From the NCBI GenBank assembly GCA_964364455.1, contig CAYIMR010000002.1, positions 35,911 to 82,219 of the forward strand: 46,309 bases of DNA. Direction: 5' to 3'. The notes under the pieces were generated by a model. It ran no database searches, was not told the origin of the DNA, and saw only the letters and a program-made list of their open reading frames with translations. Origin of the DNA: an uncultured Planctomycetales bacterium. GTDB lineage: Bacteria; Omnitrophota; Gorgyraeia; Zapsychrales; Zapsychraceae. Both the position numbers and the translations under genes were made by a program. Below, one piece after another: positions 2 to 46,118 of this stretch (its first letter is position 1; every line of letters begins with the position of its first letter).

Positions 2-2149
2 ATGAATTATCCGTTCCCGCCCTCCAACAGTTCCGGCCAAAATGGCTCTTCGCCGGTCCTGGAAAGCGTTGGCGCGCCTCGGATGACTACCGCGACATTC
101 GAGGAGGCCGATAAATTTTTGCGCGCCGCGCATGACGCGTTGGCCGGGAAAAAGGACTATTGGAGTCAAAAGATAGCTGCCAGCATCCGTGAGGCGTCGT
201 CTCCTGTCAGCGCCAGGAGTGATGATGCTGTGCCAGCCCTTGCCCAACGGGACACGCTTCCTGTCGCCGAGGCCATTGCCATTCAAGGCTACTCGGTTGT
301 CCCTGGCGTTGCCCCCGCCTCCAGCCCGGTGATGATGAAGACGTTCGAACGGATCGTTCAGGCGGTCAGAAGCGTTGATCGGCTGCCGGATGTGACGCGC
401 AGGACGTTCTTGCAATGGCTGGCTGCGGGAGTATTTGCCAGTGTTGTCGGTTGCGGCAAGGAAGATAAGGAGAATCCCGCGCCGCAGCCGCCGGTTTTGG
501 GTCTCATGGACACAGACGCGGGGCTAAACTGGTTGATTAATCGCATTGATCCCGCGACGAATCTGATCGCCAGTTTTGTAGATATTCCCGTTACGGATTC
601 TTCCTATGGCGTGACGTGGATTTTTAACCAAGCGCAGGCGATCGAAGCTTTTCTGGCGGCCGGTGATCTCGCGCGCGCCAGGCAATTGACCAAGCGGCTT
701 ATGGCACTGCAGGAATCCGGCGGGGCGTGGCGTAACGCTTATATCACCGCGACCGGGGCACCGTCGGCCAAAACGATTGAACATTCCCAGCGCTGGACGG
801 GGCCGAACGTGGCGGCCGGCGCCGTCATTCTGGAAGTAGCGGCCCTCACGCCTGAAGATCCATCTTATCTTGAATCCGCTCAACAGCTGGCCGGATGGCT
901 TGATCCTCTCTTTAATGATTTTGGTGATTTCGGATTTCTAAAAGGCGGCGATGAGGTCCCATGGGTCGCAACGGAACACAACATGCGCGCCATGCCTTAC
1001 TATGCGATGTTATTTGCCCAGACGGGGCTGGAAATCAATAACACGCGTTTGACGCAAACCAGCCGGTGGTTAAATGAGCGCATGTTCGCCGGCGATCATT
1101 ATGACGCAGGGCTTCTTTCCGTCAACCTAAACGATATCAACGGCGATTTCAATATAGCCACCGACATCCAGGCGATCGCCCCGATCATGGCCTTCCTCGC
1201 CGGGCTTGATCCTCTCAAATTCGCGGGCGGGCTGGACTGGCTTCTGGAATGGACAACACAAAGAGAGTATAACGGCACGACGTTGACGGGAATTCCGCGC
1301 TGGTTGACCTTGGGTTCATCGGTTTGGGCCGAAGGCACGTCGTATCTGGCCGCCGCGTTGATGCTTGTCGGGCGCGATCAGGAGGCCGTACCGTTTCTTA
1401 ACACGCTCGGGGCCATACAGGTTTCCGGCGGCGGGATTCTGGCGGCCATTGGAGAACCTTCCCAGGGCTGGCCCGGCGACTTCCGTTACTCCGCGGTGGA
1501 AGCGACCGCGCCGGCCATCGTGGCGACATTTGGCCTGCCGGAACATATTGCTGCCAAACCGTTACCCGCCAGCCCCGCCACCGGCGGGGCCAGCAGTCCG
1601 GTAACCGGCGATGATCAGGGGAAGGATGGTCCTTCCGCGTCGCGCAAGTTCGAACGGACGATCGGTCTGGCGCCGGGGGACAAGGCCTCCTCACCGGTCG
1701 TGGAAGGCAGGGGACAGGGTACAGGGTTCAGGGTTCAGGTGGCAGGTTTGAGGGGACAAGATGGAGAGCCCAGGCAATTTATCTGGGCATTGTGGTTCAA
1801 TCCGGATTATTACTGGCTGTGGGAGAAGATGCTGTTGAAACCGCACAAGAAAATCAGATGCTTGATCGTTCTCAACGTGCCGGAAGCCCTGAAGGAAGGG
1901 TCAATGATCAGGGTGCAGGGTACAGGGTACAGGGTACAGAGAAAAATTGCACGAACGACGAACGACGAGATACGAGCGACGAGTTCCCCGGTTGGCGCGG
2001 TGATTGTGGTTTCCTCTTCGCCGGTAGCTGATTGGAGTGACCCGGTCTGGGCGGCTTATCGGCTCAAGAAGGTGGAACAGGAGATGGCAAAAGCGAAAGG
2101 GGGCGATACCGGAGTTGTTTTTCATGTTTCCGGATCAGGTTCGAATTAA
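2..2149 (+). CDS. SSPV-motif protein, open at the 5' window edge; internal Tat/lipobox-like signal followed by an alpha/alpha-toroid-like domain; function unknown
   Basis: The ORF is uninterrupted from the window edge. Seven S-S-P-V motifs are encoded with varying Ser codons, which supports this frame. TRRTFLQWLAAGVFASVVGC (nt 395-454) resembles a Tat signal plus lipobox, so ATG 332 is a possible alternative start. The segment GLNWLI..AQAIEAFLAAGDLARARQL..GGAWRNAY has a helix-pair pattern typical of toroid folds. Heptamer DNA arrays at 1706-1761 and 1907-1983 are read through in frame. Confidence 0.55.
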   Translation: MNYPFPPSNSSGQNGSSPVLESVGAPRMTTATFEEADKFLRAAHDALAGKKDYWSQKIAASIREASSPVSARSDDAVPALAQRDTLPVAEAIAIQGYSVVPGVAPASSPVMMKTFERIVQAVRSVDRLPDVTRRTFLQWLAAGVFASVVGCGKEDKENPAPQPPVLGLMDTDAGLNWLINRIDPATNLIASFVDIPVTDSSYGVTWIFNQAQAIEAFLAAGDLARARQLTKRLMALQESGGAWRNAYITATGAPSAKTIEHSQRWTGPNVAAGAVILEVAALTPEDPSYLESAQQLAGWLDPLFNDFGDFGFLKGGDEVPWVATEHNMRAMPYYAMLFAQTGLEINNTRLTQTSRWLNERMFAGDHYDAGLLSVNLNDINGDFNIATDIQAIAPIMAFLAGLDPLKFAGGLDWLLEWTTQREYNGTTLTGIPRWLTLGSSVWAEGTSYLAAALMLVGRDQEAVPFLNTLGAIQVSGGGILAAIGEPSQGWPGDFRYSAVEATAPAIVATFGLPEHIAAKPLPASPATGGASSPVTGDDQGKDGPSASRKFERTIGLAPGDKASSPVVEGRGQGTGFRVQVAGLRGQDGEPRQFIWALWFNPDYYWLWEKMLLKPHKKIRCLIVLNVPEALKEGSMIRVQGTGYRVQRKIARTTNDEIRATSSPVGAVIVVSSSPVADWSDPVWAAYRLKKVEQEMAKAKGGDTGVVFHVSGSGSN
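1569..1596. repeat. family-C GC-rich hairpin element inside ORF1
   Basis: CCAGCCCCGCCACCGGCGGGGCCAGCAG, 27 of 28 identical to 21386-21413. Confidence 0.85.
1706..1761 (+). repeat. eight tandem degenerate heptamers (NNCAGGG) inside ORF1
   Basis: GGCAGGG GACAGGG TACAGGG TTCAGGG TTCAGGT GGCAGGT TTGAGGG GACAAGA. Confidence 0.85.
1907..1983 (+). repeat. two adjacent heptamer arrays (NNCAGGG x5, then ACGANNN x5) inside ORF1
   Basis: ATCAGGG TGCAGGG TACAGGG TACAGGG TACAGAG, then aaaaattgc, then ACGAACG ACGAACG ACGAGAT ACGAGCG ACGAG. Confidence 0.85.
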
Positions 2150-2239
2150 ATTTACATATCTTATTATGTAACAACAGGTTCCATTAATATAAACATAGTA
2201 TCTGTACTTGTTTTTATATATCAGGGAACAATAGGTGAC

Positions 2240-2656
2240 TTGCGTCCATGGATAGAAGATCCCTTGCATGAGGAATTTGCCGGGAGAATATTCGGGGATT
2301 TATCATCCGGGAAGATTACCGCGGCAGCGGAGTATGTGCAGCAAAACCCGAAACTAATCCAGAAGGGCGGGACAGTATTTTATAATAAGGTAAAGGGATC
2401 ATTGGAATTTGTGGAGAAGCTGGCCATGGGGCGCATGCTGAAAAAAGTTGATTTTGTAAAACAGCCTTTGGCAACATTCAATCACATATTTGCTATAAAC
2501 GCCTTGGAATCGATCAGTGAGCGTCAGATTCCTTTATATGTGAGAGTTGAAGACGGCGAATTTTTTACGGAGTTAGTGGGGGGGGGATATAGTAAATATT
2601 TTACAAAGAGAAGGATATGGGGTAGCGCATGTGGAAAGAAGAGTGCGAATCCATGA
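2240..2656 (+). CDS. hypothetical protein
   Basis: 138-aa ORF with a TTG start, lying after an AT-rich promoter-like spacer. It overlaps the next ORF by 26 nt. No motif was recognised. Confidence 0.4.
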   Translation: MRPWIEDPLHEEFAGRIFGDLSSGKITAAAEYVQQNPKLIQKGGTVFYNKVKGSLEFVEKLAMGRMLKKVDFVKQPLATFNHIFAINALESISERQIPLYVRVEDGEFFTELVGGGYSKYFTKRRIWGSACGKKSANP

Positions 2657-3725
2657 ATTAAAGGGGACCGCGAGTCTCATCCCGACAATTAGGACCGCCT
2701 ACATGCAGGATACAGGAAGAGAATCTTTGGAGAAAAAGCCGCTGACGGCGGTGAGCCTGAAGGGGTGGATGAAAGGCGCGACCCCAAGCGATAAAGCCCT
2801 TCCGGCTTTAATAGCTTTGAATAAAGAGACAAACATGGAAAACTTGCCGGCTGACGCAGTTTTTTTATTGGTGGCGCTTTACAGATATTTTGACCCCGGC
2901 CTCGTCGAGTCAATGCTGGATCGTGAAGGGATGTGGGATTTTGACGTAGCGGATAGAATTTTTGAAAGGTTTAGGGATGTCTTAACGAAACATCCCGAGT
3001 TGATTGATGAAATTAGCGCGAGAGCCGCTTCCTCGCCGGTATCGGAGCCGCTGTTAGAACCTGTTTCCAGCCCGGTGACGCTGGGCAAACAGGTTGAGGC
3101 TTTTATCGGGACATTGAGGCAAGAAGGTATACCGACTGGGCTATTGAAGAGAAAAAGCCTGCCGATAGAGCTTAAGGATGTCGGAGAGGCTTTGCTGAAA
3201 AATATAAAACCCGAGATTACGGGTGAAAAGGCGGACACGTTCCGCAACCAGCTTACAAATAAGAATGTTAACACAGCCCTTCTATCAATTTCCACTTCGG
3301 ATTTATGGAAGATCGTGGACCGGTGGAAATTTATTGCTTCTTTGACGCAATTATTTTCAGAGTATGGCGTATCTTACGTAGAGATCGAAGAAGCTGTCGT
3401 TCGATCCGGGTTGGGAACGGTGGCAGGGACCATCTCCAGCAGCCCGGTTGGGCAAGCGAAGGATGAGAAGGTCGGCGGTATCAATCTTGATCCGGCACTG
3501 CTCGACCTGCAGATCAGGCGCGACGCCAACTTCGTGCCTTTGCCGCTGCCGCAACAACCGATTCAGCAGATGCATATTGAAGGATTTATCCCGGTCATTA
3601 TCAACATTACGCCGGTGACGAACCTGCCGATGCTGTTAGGATTGGCGGATACAGAGCAGGACGCGGATGAAACAGGGCCGGCGATGAAAGCGCGCGAGCC
3701 GGAAGAGATAAGTGTGTTGAATTGA
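2631..3725 (+). CDS. SSPV-motif protein with a distinctive C-terminal module (GGINLDPALLDLQ...PVIINITPVTNLPMLLGL); function unknown
   Basis: 364-aa ORF with three SSPV motifs (AASSPVSE, VSSPVTLG, SSSPVGQA) encoded by different Ser codons. It sits directly downstream of the other SSPV protein. Confidence 0.55.
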   Translation: MERRVRIHELKGTASLIPTIRTAYMQDTGRESLEKKPLTAVSLKGWMKGATPSDKALPALIALNKETNMENLPADAVFLLVALYRYFDPGLVESMLDREGMWDFDVADRIFERFRDVLTKHPELIDEISARAASSPVSEPLLEPVSSPVTLGKQVEAFIGTLRQEGIPTGLLKRKSLPIELKDVGEALLKNIKPEITGEKADTFRNQLTNKNVNTALLSISTSDLWKIVDRWKFIASLTQLFSEYGVSYVEIEEAVVRSGLGTVAGTISSSPVGQAKDEKVGGINLDPALLDLQIRRDANFVPLPLPQQPIQQMHIEGFIPVIINITPVTNLPMLLGLADTEQDADETGPAMKAREPEEISVLN

Positions 3726-3748: not shown

Positions 3749-5590
3749 TTACTTGACCCTTAGAAATTGTTTGTCGAGGAAGTCTTCCGAAAGTTCTACG
3801 ACCGTCGGGCGTCCGTGCGGGCAAGTAAAAGGATCCAGGCACTGGATCAGTTCATCACGCATGTGCTCGGCCTGTTGGGGTTTCAAAACATCACCAGCCA
3901 TGACCGAGGAGCGGCAGGCGCGCCGGGCGAGCGCGTCGTGATCGCCGCGGCGCAGCGGGCCACCTCCCAGGATGTATCTTGCCGCTTTTTCAATATCCTT
4001 CAAGAACGTCGGATAACTGTGTACCGCGATCGTTTCCTTGTCCCAGAGGTTAGTGTCGAGGCCGATCGTATTGAATTGATCCCGCGCTTTCTCCCAGACG
4101 AGCATTTCCTGGGTGGAGAGTTTGAGCAAAACGGGGCTTAAAAGTCGCTGGACTTCGACATCGCCTTTATTCATCTGCCGGATGAGGCGTTCGTAGGTGA
4201 TCCGCTCGGCCGCGGCGTGTTGGTCGATAACAAGCATCGCGCGCCCCGCCTGGAACAGTTGATATTTGTTCAGTAAGGCCCCAATGTAAATCGCGCCGGA
4301 TAATTTGCTCTGAAGGTTTTCCTGGTGATTTAATTCGGGAACAAAGAAAGCCTGCTGTTCTCTCGTTGCCGTCACCGCAGGGTAAGCATAATCTCCGCCT
4401 TGGGCCGCCTCAAAAATTTCCGTTCCCGGCGCGGAATCGAACGTCACCTCCGACGGGTGCGCGCCCATGAGCGCCCGTTCAACGACATCTTCTCTGGTCC
4501 CTGGCCCCTGGCCTCTGGTCACTGCTTGCGTTTGTCCCGTTCCCAAAAGCGTCTCCTCGCACAGCCGCCGCAGGATCGAACAGATTTTTTGTTCATCCCT
4601 GATCTTGACCTCGCGTTTAGTCGGATGGATATTGACGTCGATCTCCTTCGCCGGGAGATGGAGGGAGACGACAAAAAGTGGATACAGGTCTTTGGGCATG
4701 ATGAGCCGGTATACCTGGTTGAGATGAAAGCTGATCGCTTTATTCTGCACCGGCCGGCCGTTGACGAAGATAAACTGCATGTCCCGGCGGGCGCGTTTGA
4801 TGTTGATATCACCGAGGATCAAATCGACACGTAGGGACAGGCCTAGGCCTGTCCCTACGGCCAAAAGATGTTTTTCATCGACGTGCAGGACGTGCGCCAC
4901 GCGGCTTTTCGCGTCTGAACAAGGCGCGGCATCGACCAGATCCCTGCCTTCATGGGTTAATTGAAACCGCACGTTATGATGAAGCAGGGCATAGGGGATA
5001 AAGGTGTTGAGGATCTGATGGATCTCGGTTGTATCGGATTTGAGGAATTTCCGCCGGGCAGGGGTGTTGAAGAATAGTCCCTTGACCTCGATCTCGGTTC
5101 CGTGCCCGGGCATGGCGCAGGGACGCAGATCGAGCCTTTTACCACCGCGTATATGAATTTGCCACCCCGCCAAAGGCGGGGTGCCCCCGCGCCTGGTTTC
5201 ACCGAAGGTGGAACCAGCGGGGGCTTCTTTACTGCGCAACGTCACATCCGCGATGGCGCCGATGGAATAAAGGGCCTCGCCGCGAAAGCCCAGGGACTGA
5301 ATGTCATAGAGGTCATCGGCTTTTTCAATTTTGCTGGTCGCGTGGCGTGAGAAAATTTTTTCCAGATCGTCGCGTTCGATACCGTGGCCGTTGTCTTTGA
5401 TCTTGATCAGTGTTTTGCCGGCTTCCCGCAGGGAAACTTCGATCGTGTCCGCGCCGCCCGCCTGCCGGCGAGGCAGGGCATCGAGGGCGTTCTCAACGAG
5501 CTCCTTGATGACGGAGGCGGGCCGCTCGATGACCTCGCCCGCGGCGATCTTGCTGATGACTTCTTCTTTCAGGATGTGGACGGTAGACAT
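3749..5590 (-). CDS. mutL: DNA mismatch repair protein MutL (endonuclease type)
   Basis: The N-terminus KIAAGEVIERPASVIKELVENALDA is the GHKL ATPase signature. Other motifs present are FNTPARRKF, DQHAAAERITYE and CPHGRPT. It carries several GC-rich palindromic in-frame segments. Confidence 0.95.
   Translation of the reverse strand: MSTVHILKEEVISKIAAGEVIERPASVIKELVENALDALPRRQAGGADTIEVSLREAGKTLIKIKDNGHGIERDDLEKIFSRHATSKIEKADDLYDIQSLGFRGEALYSIGAIADVTLRSKEAPAGSTFGETRRGGTPPLAGWQIHIRGGKRLDLRPCAMPGHGTEIEVKGLFFNTPARRKFLKSDTTEIHQILNTFIPYALLHHNVRFQLTHEGRDLVDAAPCSDAKSRVAHVLHVDEKHLLAVGTGLGLSLRVDLILGDINIKRARRDMQFIFVNGRPVQNKAISFHLNQVYRLIMPKDLYPLFVVSLHLPAKEIDVNIHPTKREVKIRDEQKICSILRRLCEETLLGTGQTQAVTRGQGPGTREDVVERALMGAHPSEVTFDSAPGTEIFEAAQGGDYAYPAVTATREQQAFFVPELNHQENLQSKLSGAIYIGALLNKYQLFQAGRAMLVIDQHAAAERITYERLIRQMNKGDVEVQRLLSPVLLKLSTQEMLVWEKARDQFNTIGLDTNLWDKETIAVHSYPTFLKDIEKAARYILGGGPLRRGDHDALARRACRSSVMAGDVLKPQQAEHMRDELIQCLDPFTCPHGRPTVVELSEDFLDKQFLRVK
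4831..4860. repeat. family-A GC-rich palindrome in frame inside mutL
   Basis: GTAGGGACAGGCCTAGGCCTGTCCCTAC is a perfect 28-nt palindrome. The 28 nt at 4833-4860 are identical to 10004-10031. It is translated as VGTGLGLSLR. Confidence 0.9.
5163..5224. repeat. two adjacent GC-rich hairpins in frame inside mutL
   Basis: CACCCCGCC-AAA-GGCGGGGTG (5163-5183), then the imperfect GCCCCCGCGCCTGGTTTCACC-GAA-GGTGGAACCAGCGGGGGC (5183-5224). Together they encode ..APAGSTFGETRRGGTPPLAGW... Confidence 0.7.
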
Positions 5591-8278: not shown

Positions 8279-8385
8279 GGGGGATATATGCTCTGATTCA
8301 ACGATAACCGATTGATGGGCTGAATTCTATCATAAATCTCAAATAAGTGGAACAGAAAATTGGCAAGCTATGCTATACTTTTACT

Positions 8386-8826
8386 GTGGGCAATGCGCAT
8401 CGAACAAAACGGGCGTCCGGCTTCACCATGATCGAGCTTATGACCGTGGTCGTCGTCATCGGCATTTTGGCCGCTATCGCGTTCCCGAGCTACCGGATCC
8501 AGATGAGCAAAATGAGGAATCAGGAAGCGATCCGCGCGCTTATGGCCGTCTGGGACGCGCAGAAAGATTATTACCGGACCAATGGCGCCTATGCGGCGAT
8601 TATGGGGGATCTCGACGTCGAGTTTCCTTCGGGGTTGAAACATTTTAGCGGGCCGAATGTCATCGCCGGCGCTCCGGGTTCATGCGGCGGCCCCCCCACG
8701 CCGGTCCTGGCGACGGCGGTATCTCTGACGGAAGTGTATACCCTCTCGGCTTTGGACGACGGCCGCGTTGTTTGCTCTCCCTGCGGTGACGCGCGGTGCA
8801 CAAAGATGGGATTCCCCGGCTGGTGA
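8386..8826 (+). CDS. type IV pilin-like protein (prepilin N-terminal cleavage/methylation domain)
   Basis: G/FTMIELMTVVVVIGILAAIAFPSY is the class III signal and N-terminal helix. The track ORF starts at GTG 8347. GTG 8386 would give a 12-aa leader (MGNAHRTKRASG), which is more typical. Confidence 0.8.
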   Translation: MGNAHRTKRASGFTMIELMTVVVVIGILAAIAFPSYRIQMSKMRNQEAIRALMAVWDAQKDYYRTNGAYAAIMGDLDVEFPSGLKHFSGPNVIAGAPGSCGGPPTPVLATAVSLTEVYTLSALDDGRVVCSPCGDARCTKMGFPGW

Positions 8827-9730: not shown

Positions 9731-9760
9731 GTGATGGCGATTGTTCTTCTTGGTTTGGCG
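9731..9760 (+). repeat. right copy of the 30-bp direct repeat flanking the TA cassette
   Basis: See 8823-8852. Confidence 0.8.
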
Positions 9761-10729
9761 CTGATTGTTTATCTGGACGCCCGGATGCTGCGCCGGCTAT
9801 GCCGGCGCAGCCGTCGCGATGGGCGTTTGTTCAATGACGTATTTGCCGTTTCCCCGGTTTTAACCGTTATTATCGCGGGGTTAATTTTATTTCATCTTTT
9901 TGTCGTTGAGAACTCTCCGCAAAACCTGCCACAATTCCTTTTTGTCGCTTTGTTGCCGATCTACCTTTTGCGCCGGATACGTTTTCTAAAATCCGTTGGT
10001 GGCAGGGACAGGCCTAGGCCTGTCCCTACGGAGACCGAAACCCTGGTTTCCGACGCGTATAACGTCATCCTGATCTGGTTTCTGGCCATGGTCGTCACCG
10101 GCGCTTTTTTCAAAAGCGCTGGTGAAATATTCCCGGTATTTGAATCCCGAATGGGACAACTGCTTCTGTCCGCGGTTTTTTCCTCGGCCATCGCGCTTGT
10201 CCTGATCGCCAGGGCGTCACAAAAATTTTCTGATCAAGGATTTCTTTACAATGCCGGATTGCGTAAAGGCGAGAAATCCGTCATGGAGGTGTTCGTTGTC
10301 CCGGCGCTGGTCGGGGTGTTTTTTGCCGTCGTTTCTTCAGCGATCATCTGGCTGCGCCACGTGCAGCCGGTGACGCCTTTAAGCGCGGTCGTTGCCGCGA
10401 CGGATTCGGTTTGGTTGTTCGCGATATTTTTGGCCATGGCGATCCTGGTGGCGCCTTTGATCGAAGAGATCATCTTCCGGGGATATTTTTTCCACGTCAT
10501 CCACCGGGCCAAAGGCGAGCGGTCCGCCATTTATGTTATTTCCCTGGTGTTCGCTTTTCTTCACGTCGGGCAATATTGGGGGGACTGGCCCGCGATTGTG
10601 ATGGTCATGCTGCTGGGCTTTGCCTTGGCGATTTTACGGGCCCGGACGGGAACGACGCTGGCGAGTATCATTGCCCATTACGCATATAACGCCGGAGTGA
10701 CCATTATTCCATTCTATATGGTCAAATAG
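9731..10729 (+). CDS. CPBP-family intramembrane glutamic endopeptidase (CAAX protease-like)
   Basis: EEIIFRG, FAFLH and HYAYN motifs in a polytopic membrane protein. ATG 9734 is the likely start. It contains a palindromic insert at 10004-10031. Confidence 0.85.
   Translation: MMAIVLLGLALIVYLDARMLRRLCRRSRRDGRLFNDVFAVSPVLTVIIAGLILFHLFVVENSPQNLPQFLFVALLPIYLLRRIRFLKSVGGRDRPRPVPTETETLVSDAYNVILIWFLAMVVTGAFFKSAGEIFPVFESRMGQLLLSAVFSSAIALVLIARASQKFSDQGFLYNAGLRKGEKSVMEVFVVPALVGVFFAVVSSAIIWLRHVQPVTPLSAVVAATDSVWLFAIFLAMAILVAPLIEEIIFRGYFFHVIHRAKGERSAIYVISLVFAFLHVGQYWGDWPAIVMVMLLGFALAILRARTGTTLASIIAHYAYNAGVTIIPFYMVK
10004..10031. repeat. family-A GC-rich palindrome in frame inside the CPBP protease gene
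   Basis: AGGGACAGGCCTAGGCCTGTCCCTACGG, translated as RDRPRPVPT in a loop between TM segments. Confidence 0.9.
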
Positions 10730-10770: not shown

Positions 10771-10794
10771 GCTATCTACTTGGATAGCAATAAT

Positions 10795-10870
10795 AAGTCG
10801 TAAGCGATAAGTCGTAAGCAAAGAATTTGATATTTTTTTGGCTTACCACTTATGGCTTGCGACTTACGAC
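10795..10870. repeat. heptamer-word inverted array (AAGTCGT/AAGCGAT words)
   Basis: AAGTCGTAAGCGATAAGTCGTAAGC pairs with GCTTACCACTTATGGCTTGCGACTTACGAC. Confidence 0.75.
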
Positions 10871-10878
10871 TAAATTTC

Positions 10879-11112
10879 ATGAAGAACATTTACCTCCTCA
10901 AAGACCTCGCCAAGCTCAGCGGGCATTCGACGCACACCCTGAAATATTATCTGCGGCTCGGGCTTTTCAGGGAGATTGGCCGTTCCCCAGCGACGAATTT
11001 CCGTTATTTTGATGATTCCTCCTGCGAACAATTAAAGAGGATACGCCGGCTCCAGAAGGAAAAATATTCCTTGAAAGAGATCTGCGAGCGGCTGGGCAAG
11101 AATGATGATTAG
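10879..11112 (+). CDS. minimal MerR-family transcriptional regulator
   Basis: MKNIYLLKDLAKLSGHSTHTLKYYLRLGL is a MerR HTH followed by a short coiled coil. The track start at 10852 lies inside the repeat array, so ATG 10879 is preferred. Confidence 0.85.
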   Translation: MKNIYLLKDLAKLSGHSTHTLKYYLRLGLFREIGRSPATNFRYFDDSSCEQLKRIRRLQKEKYSLKEICERLGKNDD

Positions 11113-12598
11113 AAAATGTATTTTTATTTTGATGATGGCCATTTGGGCCGCGGGTGGGACCCCTACGGGCCGCGCGCGGGCGCAATCTTTGAACGCGGTT
11201 TCAAACAGCGTCTCACAGCCGGATGGCCCTGAAACGACGACGTCCGCTGAAGTGACTGCCGCGAAAGTCGTTAAAACAACACTCGACACACTGGATGTCC
11301 AGGAAATGGACATTAAAGAGGTCCTCAAGAGAATAGCTTTTCAAAGCGGCCTTGAGATCATTTTAGACGAAGATATCAGCGCGCGGGTGACGATCTATTT
11401 GAAGGACGTCGATGTTTTTGACGCTTTGCGGATCATCCTGGATACCAATAACCTGGCTTACAGCCAGGATCCTGGAGAGACAGAAGGCAGGCAGGCCGCG
11501 GCCGTGCATGTGATGACGGCCCGGAATTTCGAGGGCCGCTTCGGTTATCCGTTCAGCCAGAAGATCCAAACGAAGATCATCCCGCTTTCCCACGCGCGGC
11601 CTGAGAAGGTAAGCGCGCTTTTGGACAAGATGAAAGGCGCGGCCGGCAAGGTCATTTACAGCGAGGGCACCAGATCGTTTATTCTCATCGACGCTGCGCA
11701 ACAGCTCACGTCCATGAGCGATCTTGTCCGGGAGATGGACGTTCCCGTGGAATCCAAAACGTTTGATCTGCGTCACGTAAAAGCCAGGGACATGGCCCCG
11801 CGTATCCAGGAATTCTTGACCAGGAACGTCGGGAGGGTCGAATTCGGCGAACGCGAAACGGCCTTGACCATCGATGACACGCCGGCGCGGCTCGTGGAGA
11901 TCGGTAAACGTATTGAAGAGCTCGACAAACCCGCCAAGGAGGTTTTTCTTGATGTCAAGATCCTTCAGATCATCCTGAACGACGAAAACCGCCAGGGAGT
12001 TGACTGGGAGGCGATCGTTTCCGATTATCAGAGTTTTCCTTTCACGGGTTTTGAGGGAAAAGGGGCCGGCATTCTAAGCGTTGGAACTGTTTCGGAAGAA
12101 GATTATGTCGTGCTCCTGGATGCCTTGGACACCGTCGGCATGCTTAATACGGTATCGAATTTGAAAATGACGGCGGGTGCCGCGGGGCGTAATGAAATTT
12201 TGATCCGGGGCAAGGACTTGCTGGCGGATTTTGAGCCGCAGGAACCGCAGGAGGGGTTGACGGGCAAAACGGAAGTGCTTTATGGTGTTGGTTCCAGGCT
12301 GGGAGATGACGCGCAGATCATGTTGGAGATCCAGCCACAGGTGCTGGGTGAGTCTGTCCCGCTCCGCGGGACCTACTCGGCCGGTGAGAAAAAAGGCCTA
12401 ACGCTCAAACTTCAGGAAGGCACCACGGTTGTCGTCGGCGGGCTGTTCAAGAGCGTTCATGTTGAGGCAACACGCAAGATCCCCTTACTCGGCGATCTGC
12501 CGTTATTGGGGTTCGCGTTCCGGCTGCAGGGACAACGCCTGCGGGAAACGGAGATCATCGTCTTTTTAACGCCGAAGGTGGTTGTGAAAGAAAAGTAA
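11102..12598 (+). CDS. secretin (short PilQ/GspD-family outer-membrane channel)
   Basis: A signal peptide is present. The N-domain reads DVQEMDIKEVLKRIAFQSGLEIILDEDI. The C-terminal secretin domain reads GTTVVVGGLF..KIPLLGDLPLLGFAFR..TEIIVFLTPKVV. It overlaps the merR stop by 11 nt. Confidence 0.85.
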   Translation: MMIRKCIFILMMAIWAAGGTPTGRARAQSLNAVSNSVSQPDGPETTTSAEVTAAKVVKTTLDTLDVQEMDIKEVLKRIAFQSGLEIILDEDISARVTIYLKDVDVFDALRIILDTNNLAYSQDPGETEGRQAAAVHVMTARNFEGRFGYPFSQKIQTKIIPLSHARPEKVSALLDKMKGAAGKVIYSEGTRSFILIDAAQQLTSMSDLVREMDVPVESKTFDLRHVKARDMAPRIQEFLTRNVGRVEFGERETALTIDDTPARLVEIGKRIEELDKPAKEVFLDVKILQIILNDENRQGVDWEAIVSDYQSFPFTGFEGKGAGILSVGTVSEEDYVVLLDALDTVGMLNTVSNLKMTAGAAGRNEILIRGKDLLADFEPQEPQEGLTGKTEVLYGVGSRLGDDAQIMLEIQPQVLGESVPLRGTYSAGEKKGLTLKLQEGTTVVVGGLFKSVHVEATRKIPLLGDLPLLGFAFRLQGQRLRETEIIVFLTPKVVVKEK

Positions 12599-12726
12599 GA
12601 AGTAAAGAGTGAGAAGTAAGAAGAGTAAAGAAAAAAGGTGGATAATGTAAAACTGAGGTAATCAGGCAGGCAAAATCCAAACCGGCGTTATTTTTTTTAC
12701 TTCTTACTTCCTTCTTCTTACTTCTA
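12594..12726. repeat. heptamer-word inverted array (AGTAAGA words) with a ~65-nt loop
   Basis: AGTAAGAAGTAAAGAGTGAGAAGTAAGAAGAGTAAAG pairs with TTTACTTCTTACTTCCTTCTTCTTACTTCTA. Confidence 0.75.
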
Positions 12727-12735
12727 ACTTTTACC

Positions 12736-14704: not shown

Positions 14705-14772
14705 ACGTCGCTCGTCGTCCGTATCTCGTATTTCGTTACGAGATACGAGATACGAGCGACGAAATACGAAAT
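14705..14772. repeat. heptamer-word hairpin (ACGANNN words) between murI and queD
   Basis: Hand pairing of 14705-14736 with 14738-14772 gives about 25 bp with 1-2 mismatches or wobbles. Confidence 0.85.
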
Positions 14773-14773
14773 C

Positions 14774-15136
14774 ATGTTTGAGCTTTCCGTCAAAAGTCAT
14801 ATCGCCTCGGCCCATTTTCTAACAGGATACCAGGGCCGGTGCAAGGACCTGCACGGCCACACCTGGCACATCGAGGCCGTGATCGCCGGCGAAGAGCTGG
14901 ACAGAATCGGCATGGTGGCGGATTTCGCAGGTCTTAAGAAACAATTGAACGAATTCTTGATGCCCCTCGACCACGTGTGTCTGAATGATCTGGAGTATTT
15001 CAAGCGCAACAATCCGACGACTGAAAATATTGCCCAGTATGTCTACCAGAATTTTGCCAAGGTGATCGCTCCGTTGCAGATCAAAAGGGTCCAGGTGTGG
15101 GAATCGGAAACATCGAGTGTGGTGTATTACGAGTAA
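14774..15136 (+). CDS. queD: 6-carboxy-5,6,7,8-tetrahydropterin synthase
   Basis: SAHFL..CKDLHGHTW..GMVADFAGLK..LDHVCLND..NPTTENI matches the QueD/PTPS family pattern. Confidence 0.9.
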   Translation: MFELSVKSHIASAHFLTGYQGRCKDLHGHTWHIEAVIAGEELDRIGMVADFAGLKKQLNEFLMPLDHVCLNDLEYFKRNNPTTENIAQYVYQNFAKVIAPLQIKRVQVWESETSSVVYYE

Positions 15137-15197
15137 GTCACAAGGTCACAATGCCACCAAGTCACCTGTTTGACTTGTGACCTGGTGACCTGGTGAC
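15137..15197. repeat. heptamer-word hairpin (GTCACNN words) between queD and queC
   Basis: CAAGTCA-n6-TGACTTG core, with GGTCAC/GTGACC outer pairs. Confidence 0.8.
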
Positions 15198-16619: not shown

Positions 16620-16698
16620 GTCACAAGGTCACAACGTCACCAGGTTACGCGGGTGACAGGTGACAGGTGACAGGTGACAGGTGACGTGGTGACCTGGT
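16620..16698. repeat. heptamer-word hairpin between queE and queF, with five perfect GTGACAG units
   Basis: GTCACAAGGTCACAACGTCACCAGGTTAC, loop gcgg, then (GTGACAG)x5 GTGACGTGGTGACCTGGT. Confidence 0.85.
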
Positions 16699-18594: not shown

Positions 18595-18656
18595 GTATCT
18601 CGTATCTCGTCGCTCGTATCTCGCACGAAATACGGTATACGAGATACGAAATACGA
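18595..18656. repeat. heptamer-word hairpin (ACGANNN words) between the convergent rdgB and AsmA-like genes
   Basis: GTATCTCGTATCTCGTCGCTCGTATCTCG pairs with CGAAATACGGTATACGAGATACGAAATACGA. Confidence 0.8.
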
Positions 18657-22861: not shown

Positions 22862-22928
22862 AGGGGCAAGTAGCAAGGGTCAGGGAACAAGGTTTTTCCT
22901 TGCTCCTTGTTTCTTGCCCCTTGCCCCT
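22862..22928. repeat. heptamer-word hairpin (GGCAAGN words) between divergent genes
   Basis: AGGGGCAAGTAGCAAGGGTCAGGGAACAAGG, loop ttttt, then CCTTGCTCCTTGTTTCTTGCCCCTTGCCCCT. Confidence 0.8.
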
Positions 22929-22986
22929 TTTTGACTCTAATTTACTTCTTGGCTGCGATAATCTTTATGTTACAATAACGCTCTGT

Positions 22987-29024: not shown

Positions 29025-29768
29025 ATGATCCTTATCTTTAAACACATCGAGATCGAAGGTCCGGAAACGATCGGCCAGTTTTTTGTTGATGAGGGTTTTG
29101 AGATCAAGATCCTTGGCCTGCATAAAGGGGATCGCCTTCCTGGAACATTTGATCATTTGGATGCCGTGATCAGCCTAGGCGGCCCGATGAATGTGTATGA
29201 GGAAGGCAAGTACCCGTTTTTAAAGGAAGAAAATGTCTTTTTGCAGGGGATTCTGGAGCAGGGGATTCCGTTTATGGGGATCTGTCTGGGAGGCCAGTTG
29301 CTCGCCAAAGCTTCCGGCTCAAAAGTGGGACGCTCACCGGAAAAAGAGATCGGATTTGCGCCGGTCCAGTTGACGGCCGCTGGTAAGAAAGATCCGTTAT
29401 TTCAAGGTGTTGCGGGACCATTGGACGTATTCCAATGGCATGAAGATATGTTTGAAGTTCCCGCCGCTGGCACGCTGCTGGCTTCATCGTCGGTGTGTCC
29501 TAACCAAGCGTTTCGCGTGGGCAAATGCGCTTACGGCGTGCAATTCCATATCGAGATCACCGATAAAAGCATCCGGGAATGGTCTGATGAATATTTTGAA
29601 GCAGGGGACCGGACATTTGCCGAAAAGAAGAAGGCGATGCTCGAGGATTATCAGAAGAAAAAAGACCAATTCCACGGCGTTGCTGATAAAATATACATGA
29701 ACTTTCTGGATATAATCTTGCAGTCACAAAGTCACCAGGTCACCAAGTCACCGGAAAAAATCGGGTGA
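29025..29768 (+). CDS. class I glutamine amidotransferase (GuaA-like GATase1 domain protein)
   Basis: PFMGICLGGQLL (nucleophile Cys) and GVQFHIE (His/Glu). The last ~15 codons read into the GTCAC array. Confidence 0.85.
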   Translation: MILIFKHIEIEGPETIGQFFVDEGFEIKILGLHKGDRLPGTFDHLDAVISLGGPMNVYEEGKYPFLKEENVFLQGILEQGIPFMGICLGGQLLAKASGSKVGRSPEKEIGFAPVQLTAAGKKDPLFQGVAGPLDVFQWHEDMFEVPAAGTLLASSSVCPNQAFRVGKCAYGVQFHIEITDKSIREWSDEYFEAGDRTFAEKKKAMLEDYQKKKDQFHGVADKIYMNFLDIILQSQSHQVTKSPEKIG

Positions 29769-29792
29769 CGGGTGACTTTGTGTCTTTGTGAC
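29723..29792. repeat. heptamer-word hairpin (GTCAC words) between the GATase gene and nadE
   Basis: GTCACAAAGTCACCAGGTCACCAAGTCACC pairs with GGGTGACGGGTGACTTTGTGTCTTTGTGAC. The GATase stop codon lies in the right arm. Confidence 0.8.
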
Positions 29793-35522: not shown

Positions 35523-36054
35523 AGTCTTTCTAATTGCTACTGCCTTTTTATCTATCTCATCGGCGGTATTTGCCGAGGTTTGTGTATGGAGAAATCCGGA
35601 AAGAACGATGACCCAGATTTTCCCGGAGGCCGGTGATTATAAGACAATCACGAAAGCTATCAGCGCCGAAGAAAGAATGGCGATTGAACAAAAGCTGGGA
35701 GCAACACTATCCGAAGACGAAAGTCAAGAGTGGATCTATTACGAAATAACGGACGGTCGAGGGGAGCCGCTGGGTTTTATCACCGCGGACGCAGAAAAGG
35801 GAGAATACGGTGTCATCGAAATGGTCATGGGTATAACGCCTGATGGAAAAGTCAAAGGAGTTTATATCCAAAGGTCTAGGGAAAAGGATACAGTGTTTAA
35901 ATCCAAACCCTTCCTAGACCAGTTCATTAATAAAACGGTTAGTGATTCTTTAGAACTTGGGAAGGATATTAAAGCATCCGAGGAATCAATGCCGGTCAAA
36001 CTGGTAGTTTTTGGCGTAAAGAAGATGTTGATCTTTTATGATCAGTTAAATTAA
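35476..36054 (+). CDS. secreted FMN_bind-like domain protein (no obvious SGAT flavinylation motif)
   Basis: RBS AAGGAG lies before ATG 35476. Signal peptide LSISSAVFAEV. GVIEMVMGITPDGKVKGVYIQRSREK resembles the FMN_bind core of NosR/RnfG-type domains. Confidence 0.55.
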   Translation: MSLQYRHTLSLPNSFKVFLIATAFLSISSAVFAEVCVWRNPERTMTQIFPEAGDYKTITKAISAEERMAIEQKLGATLSEDESQEWIYYEITDGRGEPLGFITADAEKGEYGVIEMVMGITPDGKVKGVYIQRSREKDTVFKSKPFLDQFINKTVSDSLELGKDIKASEESMPVKLVVFGVKKMLIFYDQLN

Positions 36055-39592: not shown

Positions 39593-39828
39593 ATCCAAGA
39601 GTCAAAGACGTTAAGTCCAGTGTCGATTATACCCTGACCATTCTTTTTGATAATGGAGAGCGGAAGGTCTTTGATGTGAAGCCTTATCTGGATAAGGGAA
39701 TTTTCAGGGAATTAAAAGACCCGAAGGTTTTTAATGCTGTCCGGCCTTTTTTGGGAAGCATTGAGTGGCCCCACGGTCAGGATTTTTGTCCAGACACGCT
39801 TTATTTGGAAGCGGTGGCATTGAAGTAA
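39589..39828 (+). CDS. DUF2442-family protein
   Basis: VKDVKSSVDYTLTILFDNGERKVFDVKPYLDKGIF..L is the typical DUF2442 pattern. Confidence 0.75.
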   Translation: MNPRVKDVKSSVDYTLTILFDNGERKVFDVKPYLDKGIFRELKDPKVFNAVRPFLGSIEWPHGQDFCPDTLYLEAVALK

Positions 39829-39845
39829 TTAATGAGAAAACCAGC

Positions 39846-42800
39846 ATGATGCCCGAACAATACATGCCTAAACAAGGATTATACGACCCGCGCTTCGAGC
39901 ATGACAGCTGCGGTGTTGGCTTTGTCGCTCACCTTAAAGGGCAAAAATCCCACGCGATCATTCGTAACGGCATCCAGGTTTTGGAGAATTTGAGCCATCG
40001 CGGCGCTTGCGGATGCGATCCTGAAACCGGTGACGGCGCCGGGATCACCATCCAGATGCCGGATACATTTTTGCGCAAGAAATGCGCGCAATTGCACATC
40101 GATCTGCCGCCCTTGGGCGATTATGGCGCTGGGATCGTCTTTTTGCCGCCGCTCGCCGAAGACCGCAATATCATCGAGCAATGGACCGAGCATATTATCC
40201 GCGAGGAAGGCCAGAAATTTTTAGGCTGGCGCGAGGTGCCGCATGATCCGACCAAAATAGGCAAGGTCGCCCGTTCCGTGATGCCAGCCTTTAAGCAGCT
40301 TTTTATCGGCCGGGGAAAAAATACCGCCTCCGACGCCTTCGAGCGCAAACTCTACGTGATCCGCAAGCGCCTCTACAACAAGGTGCAGGATTCCGTCCTT
40401 AATCAGCGCAATTATTATTACTTCTGCAGCCTTTCCAACAAAACGCTTGTCTATAAAGGACAATTGCTGGCCGAACAGCTGGACCGTTTTTTCCCGGACT
40501 TAAGCGATCCCGACATGACCTCGGCATTGGCCATGGTGCACTCACGTTACAGCACCAACACGTTCCCGACGTGGGCGCTGGCGCATCCGTACCGCATGAT
40601 CGCGCATAATGGGGAAATTAATACCTTGCGCGGCAATATCAACTGGACGCACGCGCGCGAAATGCAGTTTGTCAGCAAGGCTTTCGGCAAAGACCTCAAG
40701 AAAGTCCTCTCGATCGTCGTGCCTCACGGCAGCGACTCAGCGACATTTGATAATGTTTTTGAGATGCTTGTTCTCTCCGGGCGCTCGCTCGCGCACGCGA
40801 TCATGATGATGATCCCCGAGGCCTGGAACGGCCACGAAAGCATGTCCAAAGAAAAGAAAGATTTTTACGAATACCATTCGTGCCTGATGGAGCCGTGGGA
40901 CGGGCCCGCCTCGATGACTTTTACCGACGGACGCTACATCGGCGCCGTGCTCGACCGTAACGGTCTGCGTCCTTCGCGGTATTGGTTGACCAAAGACGAT
41001 CTGGTCATCATGGCCTCCGAAACAGGCGTGTTGCCGGTTGAAACGGATAAAATTCTGAAGAAGTGGCGTCTGCAGCCGGGCAAAATATTCTTGATCGACA
41101 CCCAGGCCGGGCGCATCATCGACGACGAAGAGATCAAGGGCGGATACGCGACCCGCAAGCCTTACGGCAAATGGCTCAAGGAAAACCTGGTGACCCTCGA
41201 AAACTTGCCCAAGCCCAAAAAGGTGAACGGATTTAACGCGAAAACGCTCCTCGAGCGTCAGAAGGCCTTTGGTTACACGCTGGAGGATTTGAAGATCCTT
41301 TTGCAGCCGATGGCCACCACGGGGCTGGAGGCAACCGGTTCAATGGGCACCGACACGCCGCTGGCGGTTTTGTCGCAGCGCCCGCAGCTTCTCTTTAATT
41401 ATTTCAAACAGCTTTTCGCGCAGGTCACCAATCCGCCTATCGATTCGATCCGCGAAGAGGTCGTCATGGACGAATCCATGATGCTCGGCAGTGAGGGAAA
41501 TCTTCTCGATGAAACGCCGGAGCACGCTCATCGTCTGCGCGTCGCGCGGCCGATCCTGACTAACGAAGAGCTGGAAAAGATCCGTCACGTGAATATCGGC
41601 AGCCTCAAGGCGACGACGCTGTCCTCGGTTTTTAAGGCAGTCAAAGGACCGGAAGGCCTGGAGCTGGCCATGGAAAAATTGTCCCGCGAAGCGGACAAAG
41701 TTATTGAAGAAGGCTACACGATTTTGATTTTGTCCGACCGGGATGTTAGCAAAGACAACGTCCCGATCCCGTCTTTGCTGGCCTGTTCTGGATTGCATCA
41801 TCATTTGATCCGTCGGGGGACACGTACCAAAGTGAGCCTGGTCATGGAAACGGGCGAGGCCCGCGAGATGCACCATTTTGCCGTGTTGATCGGCTACGGG
41901 GCGAACGCTATCAATCCGTATCTGGCTTTTGAAACGATCGAAAATGAGATTCGGAAAAAGGTCTATCCGGAAAACCTTGACATCGATCACGCGCAGAAGA
42001 ATTTTTTGAAAGCGACCCACAAGGGGTTGCTGAAGATCATCGCCAAGATGGGGATCTCCACGATCCAGTCGTACTGCGGGGCGCAGATCTTTGAAGCGGT
42101 CGGCCTGGGGGAAGAACTGGTGAAGAAATATTTTACCGCGACACCTTCAAGGATCGGCGGCATCGGCATCGAGACCGTGGCCGAGGAGGCGCTGCGCCGG
42201 CACAAGACGGGCTATCCGACGGAAAACGTCTACGACACGATGCTTGAGGAAGGCGGCAATTATCATTGGCGCAAAGAAGGCGAGCACCACCAGCTTAACC
42301 CCAGAACCGTGGCCATGCTCCAGCACGCGGTGCGTAGCTGCAAATACGACCTTTACAAACAATTCGCGCAGATCGTTAACAGCCAGGAAGCGAATTTTGC
42401 CAGCATCCGCGGATTGATGAAATTTAAAACGGGCAGGCCTGTTCCTGTTGAAGAAGTCGAGCCTGCCTCCGAGATCGTGAAGCGTTTCGCCACCGGGGCC
42501 ATGAGCTACGGCTCTATTTCCAAAGAAGCGCATGAGACGCTCGCTATCGCGATGAACCGTATGGGCGGGTTTTCCAACACGGGTGAAGGCGGGGAAGATG
42601 CCGACCGGTTCAAGAAAGATCCCAACGGCGACTGGCGGCGCAGCCGCATCAAGCAGGTCGCGCAGGGGCGCTTTGGTGTTACTATCGAATATCTGGTCAA
42701 TGCTGACCAGATGCAGATCAAAATGGCACAGGGCGCCAAACCCGGCGAGGGCGGACAGCTTCCCGGGCACAAGGTGAGCAAGGAAATCGCCGCGACCCGT

Positions 42801-44415: not shown

Positions 44416-44525
44416 AGAGTAAAGAGTAAGGAGTAAGAAGTAAGAAGAAAAAAAGAAGAAAAAATATCCAGGCACGAATGCCGAGCGGGATATAGGAATA
44501 TAATTCCTTCTTACTTCTTACTTTT
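44416..44525. repeat. heptamer-word inverted array (AGTAAGA words) between gltB and gltD
   Basis: AGAGTAAAGAGTAAGGAGTAAGAAGTAAGAAG pairs with CTTCTTACTTCTTACTTTT. It uses the same word family as 12594-12726. Confidence 0.75.
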
Positions 44526-46081: not shown

Positions 46082-46118
46082 ACGAAATACGAACGACGAA
46101 CGACGAGCGACGAACGAC
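46082..46118 (+). repeat. single-arm heptamer array (ACGANNN x5) upstream of glpK
   Basis: ACGAAAT ACGAACG ACGAACG ACGAGCG ACGAACG. No clear complementary arm was seen nearby. Confidence 0.7.

Follow-up and report, generated by a model that had tools for sequence, protein, structure and literature searches.

A genome-specific tetrapeptide marks module boundaries in giant modular chains of Omnitrophota and may be a processing site of metabolic polyproteins

The DNA analysed here, which we call the window, is a stretch of 46,309 nucleotides (contig CAYIMR010000002.1 of assembly GCA_964364455.1, forward-strand positions 35,911 to 82,219) from an uncultured bacterium labelled Planctomycetales in GenBank and placed in the Omnitrophota by GTDB. 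Three plus-strand open reading frames (ORFs) occupy its beginning: ORF1 (2-2149, 715 residues), a modular frame rich in junctions according to the ORF list and a motif scan, ORF2 (2240-2656, 138 residues) and ORF3 (2631-3725, 364 residues). An earlier note, made from the letters alone, had singled out the tetrapeptide Ser-Ser-Pro-Val (SSPV) as the mark of two neighbouring proteins, ORF1 and ORF3. The motif is real, but this description is too narrow, because SSPV represents the local dialect of a junction motif found throughout a family of modular Omnitrophota chains, which carry constant parts at their ends and unrelated cargo between them. We hold with little reservation that [A/S]-S-S-P-[V/I/L] is the module-boundary motif of this family and marks the N-terminal edge of each module.

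A six-frame scan of the window returned the ten SSPV copies tallied before, seven in ORF1 and three in ORF3, and agreed with every coordinate given for them. In ORF1 these are copy 1 (GSSPVL, 47-58, codons TCT TCG CCG GTC), copy 2 (ASSPVS, 197-208, TCG TCT CCT GTC), copy 3 (ASSPVM, 320-331, with MMKTFER directly next and then a lipoprotein signal of the twin-arginine translocation (Tat) type), copy 4 (ASSPVT, 1592-1603, AGC AGT CCG GTA), copy 5 (ASSPVV, 1688-1699), copy 6 (TSSPVG, 1982-1993) and copy 7 (SSSPVA, 2015-2026), while ORF3 holds copy 8 (ASSPVS, 3030-3041), copy 9 (VSSPVT, 3066-3077) and copy 10 (SSSPVG, 3438-3449), all on the plus strand. That the motif occurs nowhere else in the window is correct for its genes but not for the raw six-frame scan, which yielded four extra minus-strand matches (41318-41329, 42115-42126, 1603-1614 and 1021-1032); all four are antisense to real genes (gltB or ORF1), and a stop codon immediately precedes two of them. 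Composition predicts 0.016 copies in ORF1 plus 0.007 in ORF3, compared with ten observed, and 0.145 copies in the roughly 31 likely genes of the window (13,505 residues), and the tripeptides SSP and SPV are absent from ORF1 and ORF3 outside SSPV. Conservation at the peptide level had been proposed from the variable serine codons and was confirmed. The Ser-Ser pairs of copies 1 to 10 read TCT-TCG, TCG-TCT, TCC-AGC, AGC-AGT, TCC-TCA, AGT-TCC, TCT-TCG, TCC-TCG, TCC-AGC and AGC-AGC, and since both codon families (TCN and AGY) are used in many combinations, the constraint lies on the peptide rather than on a DNA word.

ORF1 opens with three short mini-modules, continues with a Tat-lipoprotein module and ends in a tail that holds four SSPV copies and three arrays of heptamer repeats. 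It carries no C-terminal constant module and, inside the window, no N-domain (both are described below), and because it begins at window base 2 its true 5' end is uncertain, being either cut by the window edge or located just outside it. Its homologues are P0050, which is identical and was called from M28, and the distant P0051, which is 37% identical over the central domain only (55% of the query). Similarity to P0051 delimits a central folded module (464-1561, about residues 155-520) without a family match, for which only a faint hint of the squalene-hopene-cyclase type was obtained (Pfam SQHop_cyclase_C, E = 0.04), and a PDB sequence search with ORF1 gave no match. A twin-arginine lipoprotein signal, read from the sequence by its consensus, is embedded at 395-454 (residues 132-151, TRRTFLQWLAAGVFASVVGC); starting TRRTFLQW, it fits [ST]-R-R-x-F-L-K, followed by a hydrophobic h-region and a lipobox of the form [LVI][ASTVI][GAS]C, here VVGC. 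P0051 likewise has an internal Tat-type signal (TRRNFLKG), and both proteins score below the 22.7-bit cut-off of Pfam TAT_signal (14.1 bits for ORF1 and 19.7 bits for P0051). The claim that one SSPV lies immediately before a Tat-like signal thus holds for copy 3, with the signal starting 21 residues later in ORF1. Such a signal at residue 132, rather than at the N-terminus of the translated ORF, is an anomaly that argues for processing or for a later start. The tail (about residues 530-715) is unusual in holding all three heptamer DNA arrays of the ORF: CAGGGTA x4.6 at 1708-1739 (translated GQGTGFRVQ), CAGGGTA x4.4 at 1909-1939 (VQGTGYRVQ) and ACGAGCG x4.7 at 1951-1983 (TTNDEIRAT), the last running into SSPV copy 6.

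ORF3 comprises two cargo modules split by SSPV, followed by the C-terminal constant module (3474-3665, residues 282-345, GGINLDPALLDLQIRRDANFVPLPLPQQPIQQMHIEGFIPVIINITPVTNLPMLLGLADTEQ), which begins eight residues after copy 10, and by an acidic tail (3666-3722) ending in KAREPEEISVLN, of which the ending E-E-[IV]-S-x-L-N is common to a subset of the family. The profile of the C-terminal module matches ORF3 with 118 bits (E = 5e-36), and this is its only copy in the window. Searches of ORF1, ORF2 and ORF3 against Pfam and NCBIfam produced nothing except the sub-threshold TAT_signal (for ORF3, none at E <= 1).

Comparison with related contigs revealed how the locus was assembled. The region 2215-3040 of the window corresponds to 2257-3079 of the groundwater contig L080 at 96% nucleotide identity; this contig and its near-identical companions L081-L083 derive from Hainich groundwater (H51/H52). 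In contigs L080-L082 the parent gene is an 863-residue ORF made of a signal, the N-domain, the sequence TSSPI and a cargo module, with an ORF3-like gene next to it, and the last ~140 residues of the L080 ORF match window ORF2, which therefore represents the last ~140 residues of a cargo module. The first ~700 codons of the parent gene are missing from the window, where ORF1 and an AT-rich spacer (2150-2239) stand in their place; the spacer forms the left rearrangement breakpoint, with L080 homology beginning at 2215. Contig L083, from an independent sample and 98% identical, has the same arrangement as the window. The N-terminal signal and N-domain are absent from ORF1, ORF2 and ORF3 but present in the near-identical L080 parent. 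Judged from these alignments, ORF2 and ORF3 are a rearranged, truncated remnant of one canonical chain gene. A second difference concerns window 3041-3470, which is missing from P0002/L080 and amounts to one whole module, with the end of SSPV copy 8 as its left breakpoint and the start of the C-terminal module as its right one. Likewise, the window is syntenic with L003, an Omnitrophota contig (JACRHP010000079) from a metagenome-assembled genome (MAG), at ~79% nucleotide identity through mutL and mutS; this homology starts at 3474, precisely where the C-terminal module begins, and the equivalent position upstream in L003 is taken by an unrelated 2,176-residue chain of N-domain, FBPase and PGM. 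As the indel breakpoints fall at the motif and at the C-terminal module, modules are gained and lost in frame, as cassettes with the motif as their boundary.

The change of frame from ORF2 to ORF3 is associated with a run of nine G residues on the plus strand (2578-2586), the ORF3 frame being open from 2577 and the two ORFs overlapping at 2631-2656. The same frame break was seen in the independent assemblies L083, with an identical run, and L080-L082, in which the protein reads EL-GGG-Y compared with ELV-GGG-Y in the window. The gene may truly be split, or the break may be bridged by transcriptional slippage or programmed frameshifting. Further downstream, a regular-expression match at 39765-44414 pointed to a second family member but proved to be a false positive, the gene being glutamate synthase.

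To place ORF3 in its family, a homology search was performed and returned 49 proteins, nearly all of which share only the last ~90 residues. Their N-terminal parts are unrelated to one another and include PGK, TIM, phosphomannomutase (PMM), receiver (REC) domains, HATPase and methyltransferase, and most of the proteins carry [AST]SSP[VILM] between the parts (63 SSP in 21 thousand residues, with V, I or L following the proline in 54 of the 63). A profile of the C-terminal module (~65 residues) built from the alignment of the 49 homologues identified 4,816 representative proteins among 1.84 billion at E <= 1e-3, always with the module within ~100 residues of the C-terminus, in proteins of up to 4,969 residues. 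Taking one genome per species, 348 genomic stretches were confirmed; the best 79 of these loci, which were examined, all come from Omnitrophota MAGs, a few of them auto-labelled Planctomycetales or 'bacterium', and several genomes have more than one locus. On the evidence so far, the family thus appears confined to Omnitrophota. The 97 ORFs with a C-terminal module on the examined loci have a mean length of 1,587 residues, many extending past the 10-kb flank, and full-length members range from 1,000 to more than 3,400 residues.

Nearly all complete members begin with a basic n-region, a hydrophobic helix and a ..PPGYA|Q sequence, that is, with a Sec-type signal peptide, after which comes a conserved N-domain of ~330 residues (LNLP.PGTM ... 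WVNLSPYE ... IPRKYFSGG). No Pfam or NCBIfam model covers the N-domain, and a PDB sequence search with its profile found no match. Near its residues 225-250 stands a hypervariable low-complexity insert, such as SHQSSDVSHQKENKNLTTDDRRLTT or NQGTGDRVQGTEELNPEPRTLNPE, which has a low predicted local distance difference test score (pLDDT) and in places resembles translated short DNA repeats. At the other end of the chain, the C-terminal module has the consensus GGI[DN]LNP..LQI[KR]RD..PLP..QP...I.GF.P[VI]II..P...LP.LLG, its latter part also read as ...PVIIN.TPV.NLP.LLG. Its AlphaFold2 (AF2) model (pLDDT 76) contains almost no secondary structure, so that in this prediction the module looks like an extended hydrophobic proline-rich peptide and not like a fold. 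An acidic tail of 20-50 residues follows it. In a subset of the family (e.g. L001, L009, L019, L022, L024 and L078) the extreme C-terminus, after an acidic tail of variable length, reads K-A-R-E-x-E-E-[IV]-S-x-L-N, and such conservation suggests that the free C-terminus may be recognised.

The cargo between these constant parts was surveyed with Pfam on 27 giant ORFs. Among the families listed, it includes PGK, PGI, PGM/PMM, TIM, class-I FBP aldolase, FBPase, phosphoglycerate-mutase-type phosphatase, PPDK, isocitrate lyase, malate synthase, methylmalonyl-CoA mutase with MeaB, GH77, UDP-glucose pyrophosphorylase, aminotransferase, ACC carboxyltransferase and receiver domains, and a few Tat-signal proteins are also found among the cargo modules. 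The units are complete, with PGK covering Pfam positions 3-379 of 379, PGI matching at E = 4e-194 and GH77 at E = 6e-157. Most of the cargo consists of cytoplasmic enzymes that depend on ATP, GTP, B12 or NAD, and yet the chain opens with a Sec signal. In one locus (L042, 2-10297) an ORF of more than 3,432 residues combines malate synthase, isocitrate lyase and class-I FBP aldolase with 13 D-x-A-M junctions. In a recent survey of another set of Omnitrophota, comprising 176 complete genomes, the glyoxylate shunt was scored absent in all of them (10.64898/2026.06.07.730766).

That the motif sits at domain boundaries, supposed before from ORF1 and ORF3, was borne out across the family, where it precedes receiver domains, enzymes and the C-terminal module. 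In 13 of 17 receiver domains, strict SSP[VILM] or D.AM ends 1-12 residues before strand 1, with a distance of 1-5 residues in 11 of those (for example SSPV-IKK-ILVVDD), and of the four others, three show a variant instead (ASPI, STPI or SSPA). Alignments to NCBIfam response-regulator models start at model position 1-2 with the residue that follows SSPV, and in a genome of the D-x-A-M type it is the M that falls on Met1. PGK in L002 (residues 1112-1525) is flanked by motifs at 1098 and 1568, and FBA in L042 (2347-2646) by motifs at 2280 and 2690, while the strict motif was found inside a Pfam domain stretch in 0 of 12 examined. Within 40 residues upstream of the C-terminal module a strict motif is present in 39% of cases compared with 7% of random windows (any variant, 62% compared with 12%), and it is sometimes contiguous with the module, as in SSPL-GGINLNP. 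Aligned by position, the motif reads [A37 S26]-S-S-P-[V58 I23 L15 M4]-[T/G/E/S].

The earlier note had named the frequency of SSPV in the proteome and its presence in aligned homologues as tests, and both came out in favour of the motif. Family ORFs of SSP-type genomes contain 138 SSP[VILM] in 40,910 residues, where 2.1 are expected, compared with 9 in 78,933 residues of ordinary ORFs (3.5 expected), five of these nine being one conserved MenD active-site motif. Orthologues at 47% identity keep the motif exactly at seven of ten aligned positions, and two more positions read ASPI and STPI, while the residues just upstream of it vary and gather indels.

Other Omnitrophota chains are without SSP[VIL] and carry D-x-A-M-[LVMTI]-[ATSG] instead, or N-S-A-M, N-S-A-V, N-A-A-V or T-N-A-A-V. 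In D-x-A-M the second position is more commonly A, K, E or Q than S (8%), and the third is a fixed alanine. These variants hold the same kinds of sites, in front of receiver domains, the C-terminal module and embedded Tat signals. The SSP type (genomes CAYIQK01, JACRHP01, JAGLHE01, SBBO01 and JAKQKX01) and the D-x-A-M type (DATDQB01, JAJDCA01, JAVCCJ01 and JADFZM01) are mutually exclusive between genomes, and every locus of a given genome is of one type; JACRHP01, the MAG closest to the window, shares the SSP type. Set against a crude tree of N-domains (unweighted pair group method with arithmetic mean), motif type is consistent within genomes but forms no single clean clade, a comparison that paralogy confounds.

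What the boundary motif does was then considered in the light of signals found inside the chains. Twin-arginine signals occur in mid-chain, 0-45 residues past a junction motif, in four independent proteins (ORF1, L022, P0096 and P0137), two of the four with a lipobox; L022 reads SSPM...SSPD..MGRRTFLRN...AGGC, and P0096 reads DSAM-VAEGSKGITRRAFFGKG. A Tat signal is functional only at a free N-terminus. Because Tat needs a free N-terminus and Tat signals are located in mid-chain, the modules carrying them need free N-termini. Similarly, with a Sec start in front of cytoplasmic cargo, N-domain and cargo can reach different destinations only if they become separated or if a stop-transfer segment lies between them. 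Finally, the uniformity of the tetrapeptide within a genome, its variation from one genome to another and its placement at the Met1 position of each module are what would be expected of a single co-evolving trans-acting reader. Processing, modification and docking had all been offered earlier as roles for SSPV; the family-wide data favour processing or docking and disfavour modification of serine.

We propose that the junction motif would be read as a peptide by one trans-acting, co-evolving factor per genome, and that this factor would most likely be an endopeptidase cutting before the hydrophobic residue (SSP|V and DxA|M). Such a cut would free each module with an N-terminus of its own, like that of its free-standing relatives, as in the maturation of viral polyproteins. 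Our confidence that the junction motif is a cleavage site falls just short of an even chance. More tentative is the wider proposal, which we think possible, that in many Omnitrophota a large part of the enzymes of central metabolism, together with some regulators, is produced as long polyproteins, with an exported constant domain first, a constant hydrophobic peptide last, a genome-specific endopeptidase and cassette-swapped enzymes between.

Several observations weigh against these proposals. No protease constantly accompanies the family in the locus flanks, whose genes are ordinary; of the families that recur there, namely receiver proteins, TPR/PMT_2, ABC ATPase, histidine kinase, menaquinone genes and, within a single synteny group, an M48 peptidase, not one is universal. 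Proline just before the scissile bond would be an unusual protease specificity, and intact multi-enzyme fusions exist, so that concatenation alone is no proof of processing. Furthermore, upstream of 38% of the C-terminal modules no motif can be recognised within 40 residues, some genomes have only weak or different motifs, and the general motif is partly our own reading of a pattern. The ORFs of the loci were called by a crude longest-ORF rule. As for the N-domain, it has no invariant His or Cys, and its AF2 model (pLDDT 65, predicted template modelling score 0.63) gave no Foldseek match in the PDB, the best E being 0.9.

Some protease genes were nevertheless seen near family members. They belong to the two membrane protease families of the CAAX-protease type. 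Rce1-like/CPBP genes lie in the window at 9731-10729 and in L080 at 3903-4898, and in one synteny group an M48 gene precedes the giant ORF by two genes (L013 5487-6275, L025 60-917, L026 2591-3454, L030 2658-3464 and L048 2624-3481). These are the only protease candidates seen; both families are common and their proximity may be due to chance.

The strongest alternative to cleavage, which we regard as somewhat unlikely, is that the chains stay intact as membrane-tethered multi-enzyme megaproteins, the motif being an uncleaved hinge, an N-cap or a docking site that a chaperone, scaffold or partner would bind at the start of every module. A transmembrane-like segment does follow the N-domain directly in several members, e.g. 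P0067, P0154 and P0056 (MAWKLGGLKTLGAFALGTLLSFG), and would keep the cargo cytoplasmic but anchored to the membrane. The C-terminal module, hydrophobic and modelled as extended without secondary structure, resembles docking peptides in this respect, the flanks yielded no dedicated protease, and Thermotoga PGK-TIM is a well-known intact enzyme fusion. However, most members have no transmembrane segment after the N-domain, so that the Sec signal would export ATP-dependent enzymes; the mid-chain Tat-lipoprotein signals would fail without a free N-terminus or an equivalent event; and a hinge does not need a strict, genome-uniform tetrapeptide at the position of Met1.

Free N-termini might also arise during translation in a protease-independent way, either by internal initiation at the junctions or by a 2A-like skip of the peptide bond, and Sec signals at the N-terminus and Tat signals inside would then each work normally upon release. 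In line with this, the M of D-x-A-M is an ATG aligned with Met1 of free-standing homologues, and ATG ATG directly follows copy 3 in the window. But the fourth codon of SSP-type motifs is GTC, GTT, GTA, ATC, CTT, CTC or TTA as often as GTG/TTG, hence mostly a non-initiation codon, and on this ground internal initiation was rejected for SSP-type genomes. Moreover, the junctions show no conserved Shine-Dalgarno-like DNA, a skip signal read by the conserved ribosome should match across lineages whereas the motif differs between genomes, and we know of no bacterial precedent for 2A-type skipping. Co-translational separation is thus improbable.

Slightly less probable again is the suggestion, made for SSPV from the window alone, that the motif serves for O-glycosylation or phosphorylation of serine in inter-domain linkers. 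Ser-Ser-Pro linkers do resemble the Ser/Pro-rich O-glycosylated linkers of secreted bacterial proteins, and canonical chains start with a Sec signal. However, D-x-A-M, N-S-A-M and N-A-A-V occupy equivalent boundaries without a conserved hydroxyl residue, and the cargo consists of cytoplasmic enzymes and receiver domains. The search for a co-occurring glycosyltransferase or kinase that the earlier note had advised found none consistently adjacent, only one TPR/PMT_2 family in 11 of 80 loci. The Bacteroidota-type O-glycosylation sequon D-[ST]-[AILVMT] was rejected as well, as D-x-A-M has no conserved hydroxyl acceptor (S 8% at the second position). Finally, that the motif is a functionless by-product of chance or composition, of a translated DNA repeat or of a recombination scar from cassette shuffling is very improbable and already close to refuted, for although three heptamer arrays lie in the ORF1 tail, one of them entering copy 6, and module indel breakpoints coincide with the motif, there are ten copies where 0.02 are expected, both serine codon families are used with no DNA word in common beyond CCGGT, the motif is kept at aligned positions at 47% identity, and heptamer arrays are found at 0.33 per 10 kb in giant ORFs compared with 0.30 in ordinary ones, with 6 of 17 within 30 residues of a junction.

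The repeats themselves are a feature of the surroundings. Nearly every intergenic spacer of the window contains tandem repeats of 7 nt (some of 8 nt) whose units differ, the arrays being located at 10793-10871, 12593-12734, 14737-14769, 15135-15197, 16620-16698, 18595-18656, 22897-22929, 29722-29792, 44417-44523 and 46089-46118, and these spacer arrays recall the cyanobacterial short tandemly repeated repetitive (STRR) sequences. Across 80 sources, period-7 arrays amount to 6.8 per 10 kb in intergenic DNA compared with 0.3 per 10 kb in ORFs. One array (CTGGCCC x3.6) is found inside mutL at window 4494-4518, presumably in a linker between two MutL domains. As a general feature of junction linkers, heptamer repeats were discarded, being no denser in giant ORFs and near a junction in only 6 of 17 cases. 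A few kb further downstream, the window encodes a pilin-like protein with a methylation motif at its N-terminus, and a secretin (8347-8826 and 11102-12598); the secretin is syntenic in L003 and L080, and the context is that of an ordinary type IV pilus or type II secretion system.

If the junction motif serves for processing, Omnitrophota would be the first known case of bacteria expressing their housekeeping metabolism via polyproteins, a cellular counterpart of viral polyprotein expression. This would bear on how enzyme stoichiometry is controlled in ultra-small, possibly host-dependent cells with few promoters and ribosomes, on gene gain and loss, which would take place as in-frame cassettes, and on metabolic reconstruction, in which enzymes inside multi-kb 'hypothetical' ORFs are easily mis-scored. 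Even if the chains are not cleaved, three elements have been defined that have no Pfam, NCBIfam or PDB counterpart, namely the N-domain, the C-terminal module and the genome-specific junction motif, and in practice the motif can serve as a parser that divides the giant ORFs into modules, which can then be annotated and submitted to structure prediction.

A literature search retrieved nothing on an SSPV motif. Term searches of PMC10066038, 10.1101/2023.11.21.568195 and 10.64898/2026.06.07.730766 found no mention of the family or the junction motif, and in the latter two no mention of a polyprotein, fusion, linker motif or conserved C-terminal module. Within the literature searched, the family and its junction motif thus appear undescribed, although such absence is no proof of novelty. 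A comparable case in the same phylum is that of the Omnitrophota giants called 'Archaeovorins', which exceed 10-30 thousand residues (West-Roberts et al. 2023, 10.1101/2023.11.21.568195; 10.64898/2026.06.07.730766). They too are unusually long ORFs for which the authors suspect post-translational cleavage, and one of the two texts calls the cleavage points unknown. By contrast with the present chains, they are an order of magnitude longer and have adhesion, carbohydrate-binding and peptidase domains and many transmembrane helices.

Several known systems share single aspects of the architecture. Thermotoga PGK-TIM and fungal AROM join consecutive pathway enzymes in one polypeptide, and PGK and TIM are also cargo here, but those fusions have far fewer units and lack a junction tetrapeptide, constant terminal modules and embedded signals. 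LPXTG/sortase, PEP-CTERM/exosortase and GlyGly-CTERM/rhombosortase substrates resemble the family in that a short C-terminal element is common to unrelated proteins of one lineage; theirs, however, consists of a motif, a transmembrane helix and a basic tail within ~25-35 residues, while the module described here is ~65 residues long, rich in Pro and Asn and followed by an acidic tail. The C-terminal module was accordingly rejected as an LPXTG, PEP-CTERM or GlyGly-CTERM signal, and likewise as a C-terminal domain (CTD) of the type IX secretion system (T9SS), in view of the missing model match, the acidic tail and the AF2 model with almost no secondary structure. Polyproteins of the gingipain type are also alike, those of Porphyromonas gingivalis (gingipains and HagA) having a Sec signal, domains processed at short sites and a C-terminal module common to unrelated proteins. 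The T9SS CTD is, however, an Ig-like beta-sandwich of ~80 residues, whereas for the present module no fold is predicted and neither Pfam nor NCBIfam gives a match, and the cargo here is made of cytoplasmic enzymes.

The closest architectural analogues are MARTX toxins and viral polyproteins. Like MARTX toxins, the family has ORFs of several thousand residues with constant N- and C-terminal regions, unrelated central modules reshuffled between strains and a short cleavage motif in each linker, although cleavage is in our case putative. They differ in that the Pfam matches of the 27 giant ORFs contain no RTX or glycine-rich repeats and, among the top 25 of 50 families, no cysteine protease or peptidase domain, in that the cargo consists of housekeeping metabolic enzymes rather than toxins, and in that the chain opens with a Sec-type signal where MARTX is a substrate of the type I secretion system. 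Compared with viral polyproteins, the chains belong to a cellular genome, number dozens of different ones per phylum and have constant terminal modules, and no protease was found inside or beside them. As in the polyproteins of picornaviruses (3C, Q|G) and potyviruses (NIa), however, independent proteins are arranged head to tail with the same short, lineage-specific motif at their junctions, which in the viruses co-evolves with the protease. Two marks of a viral-type polyprotein were found in these chains: units that exist elsewhere as free-standing proteins, and the same short motif where they are joined.

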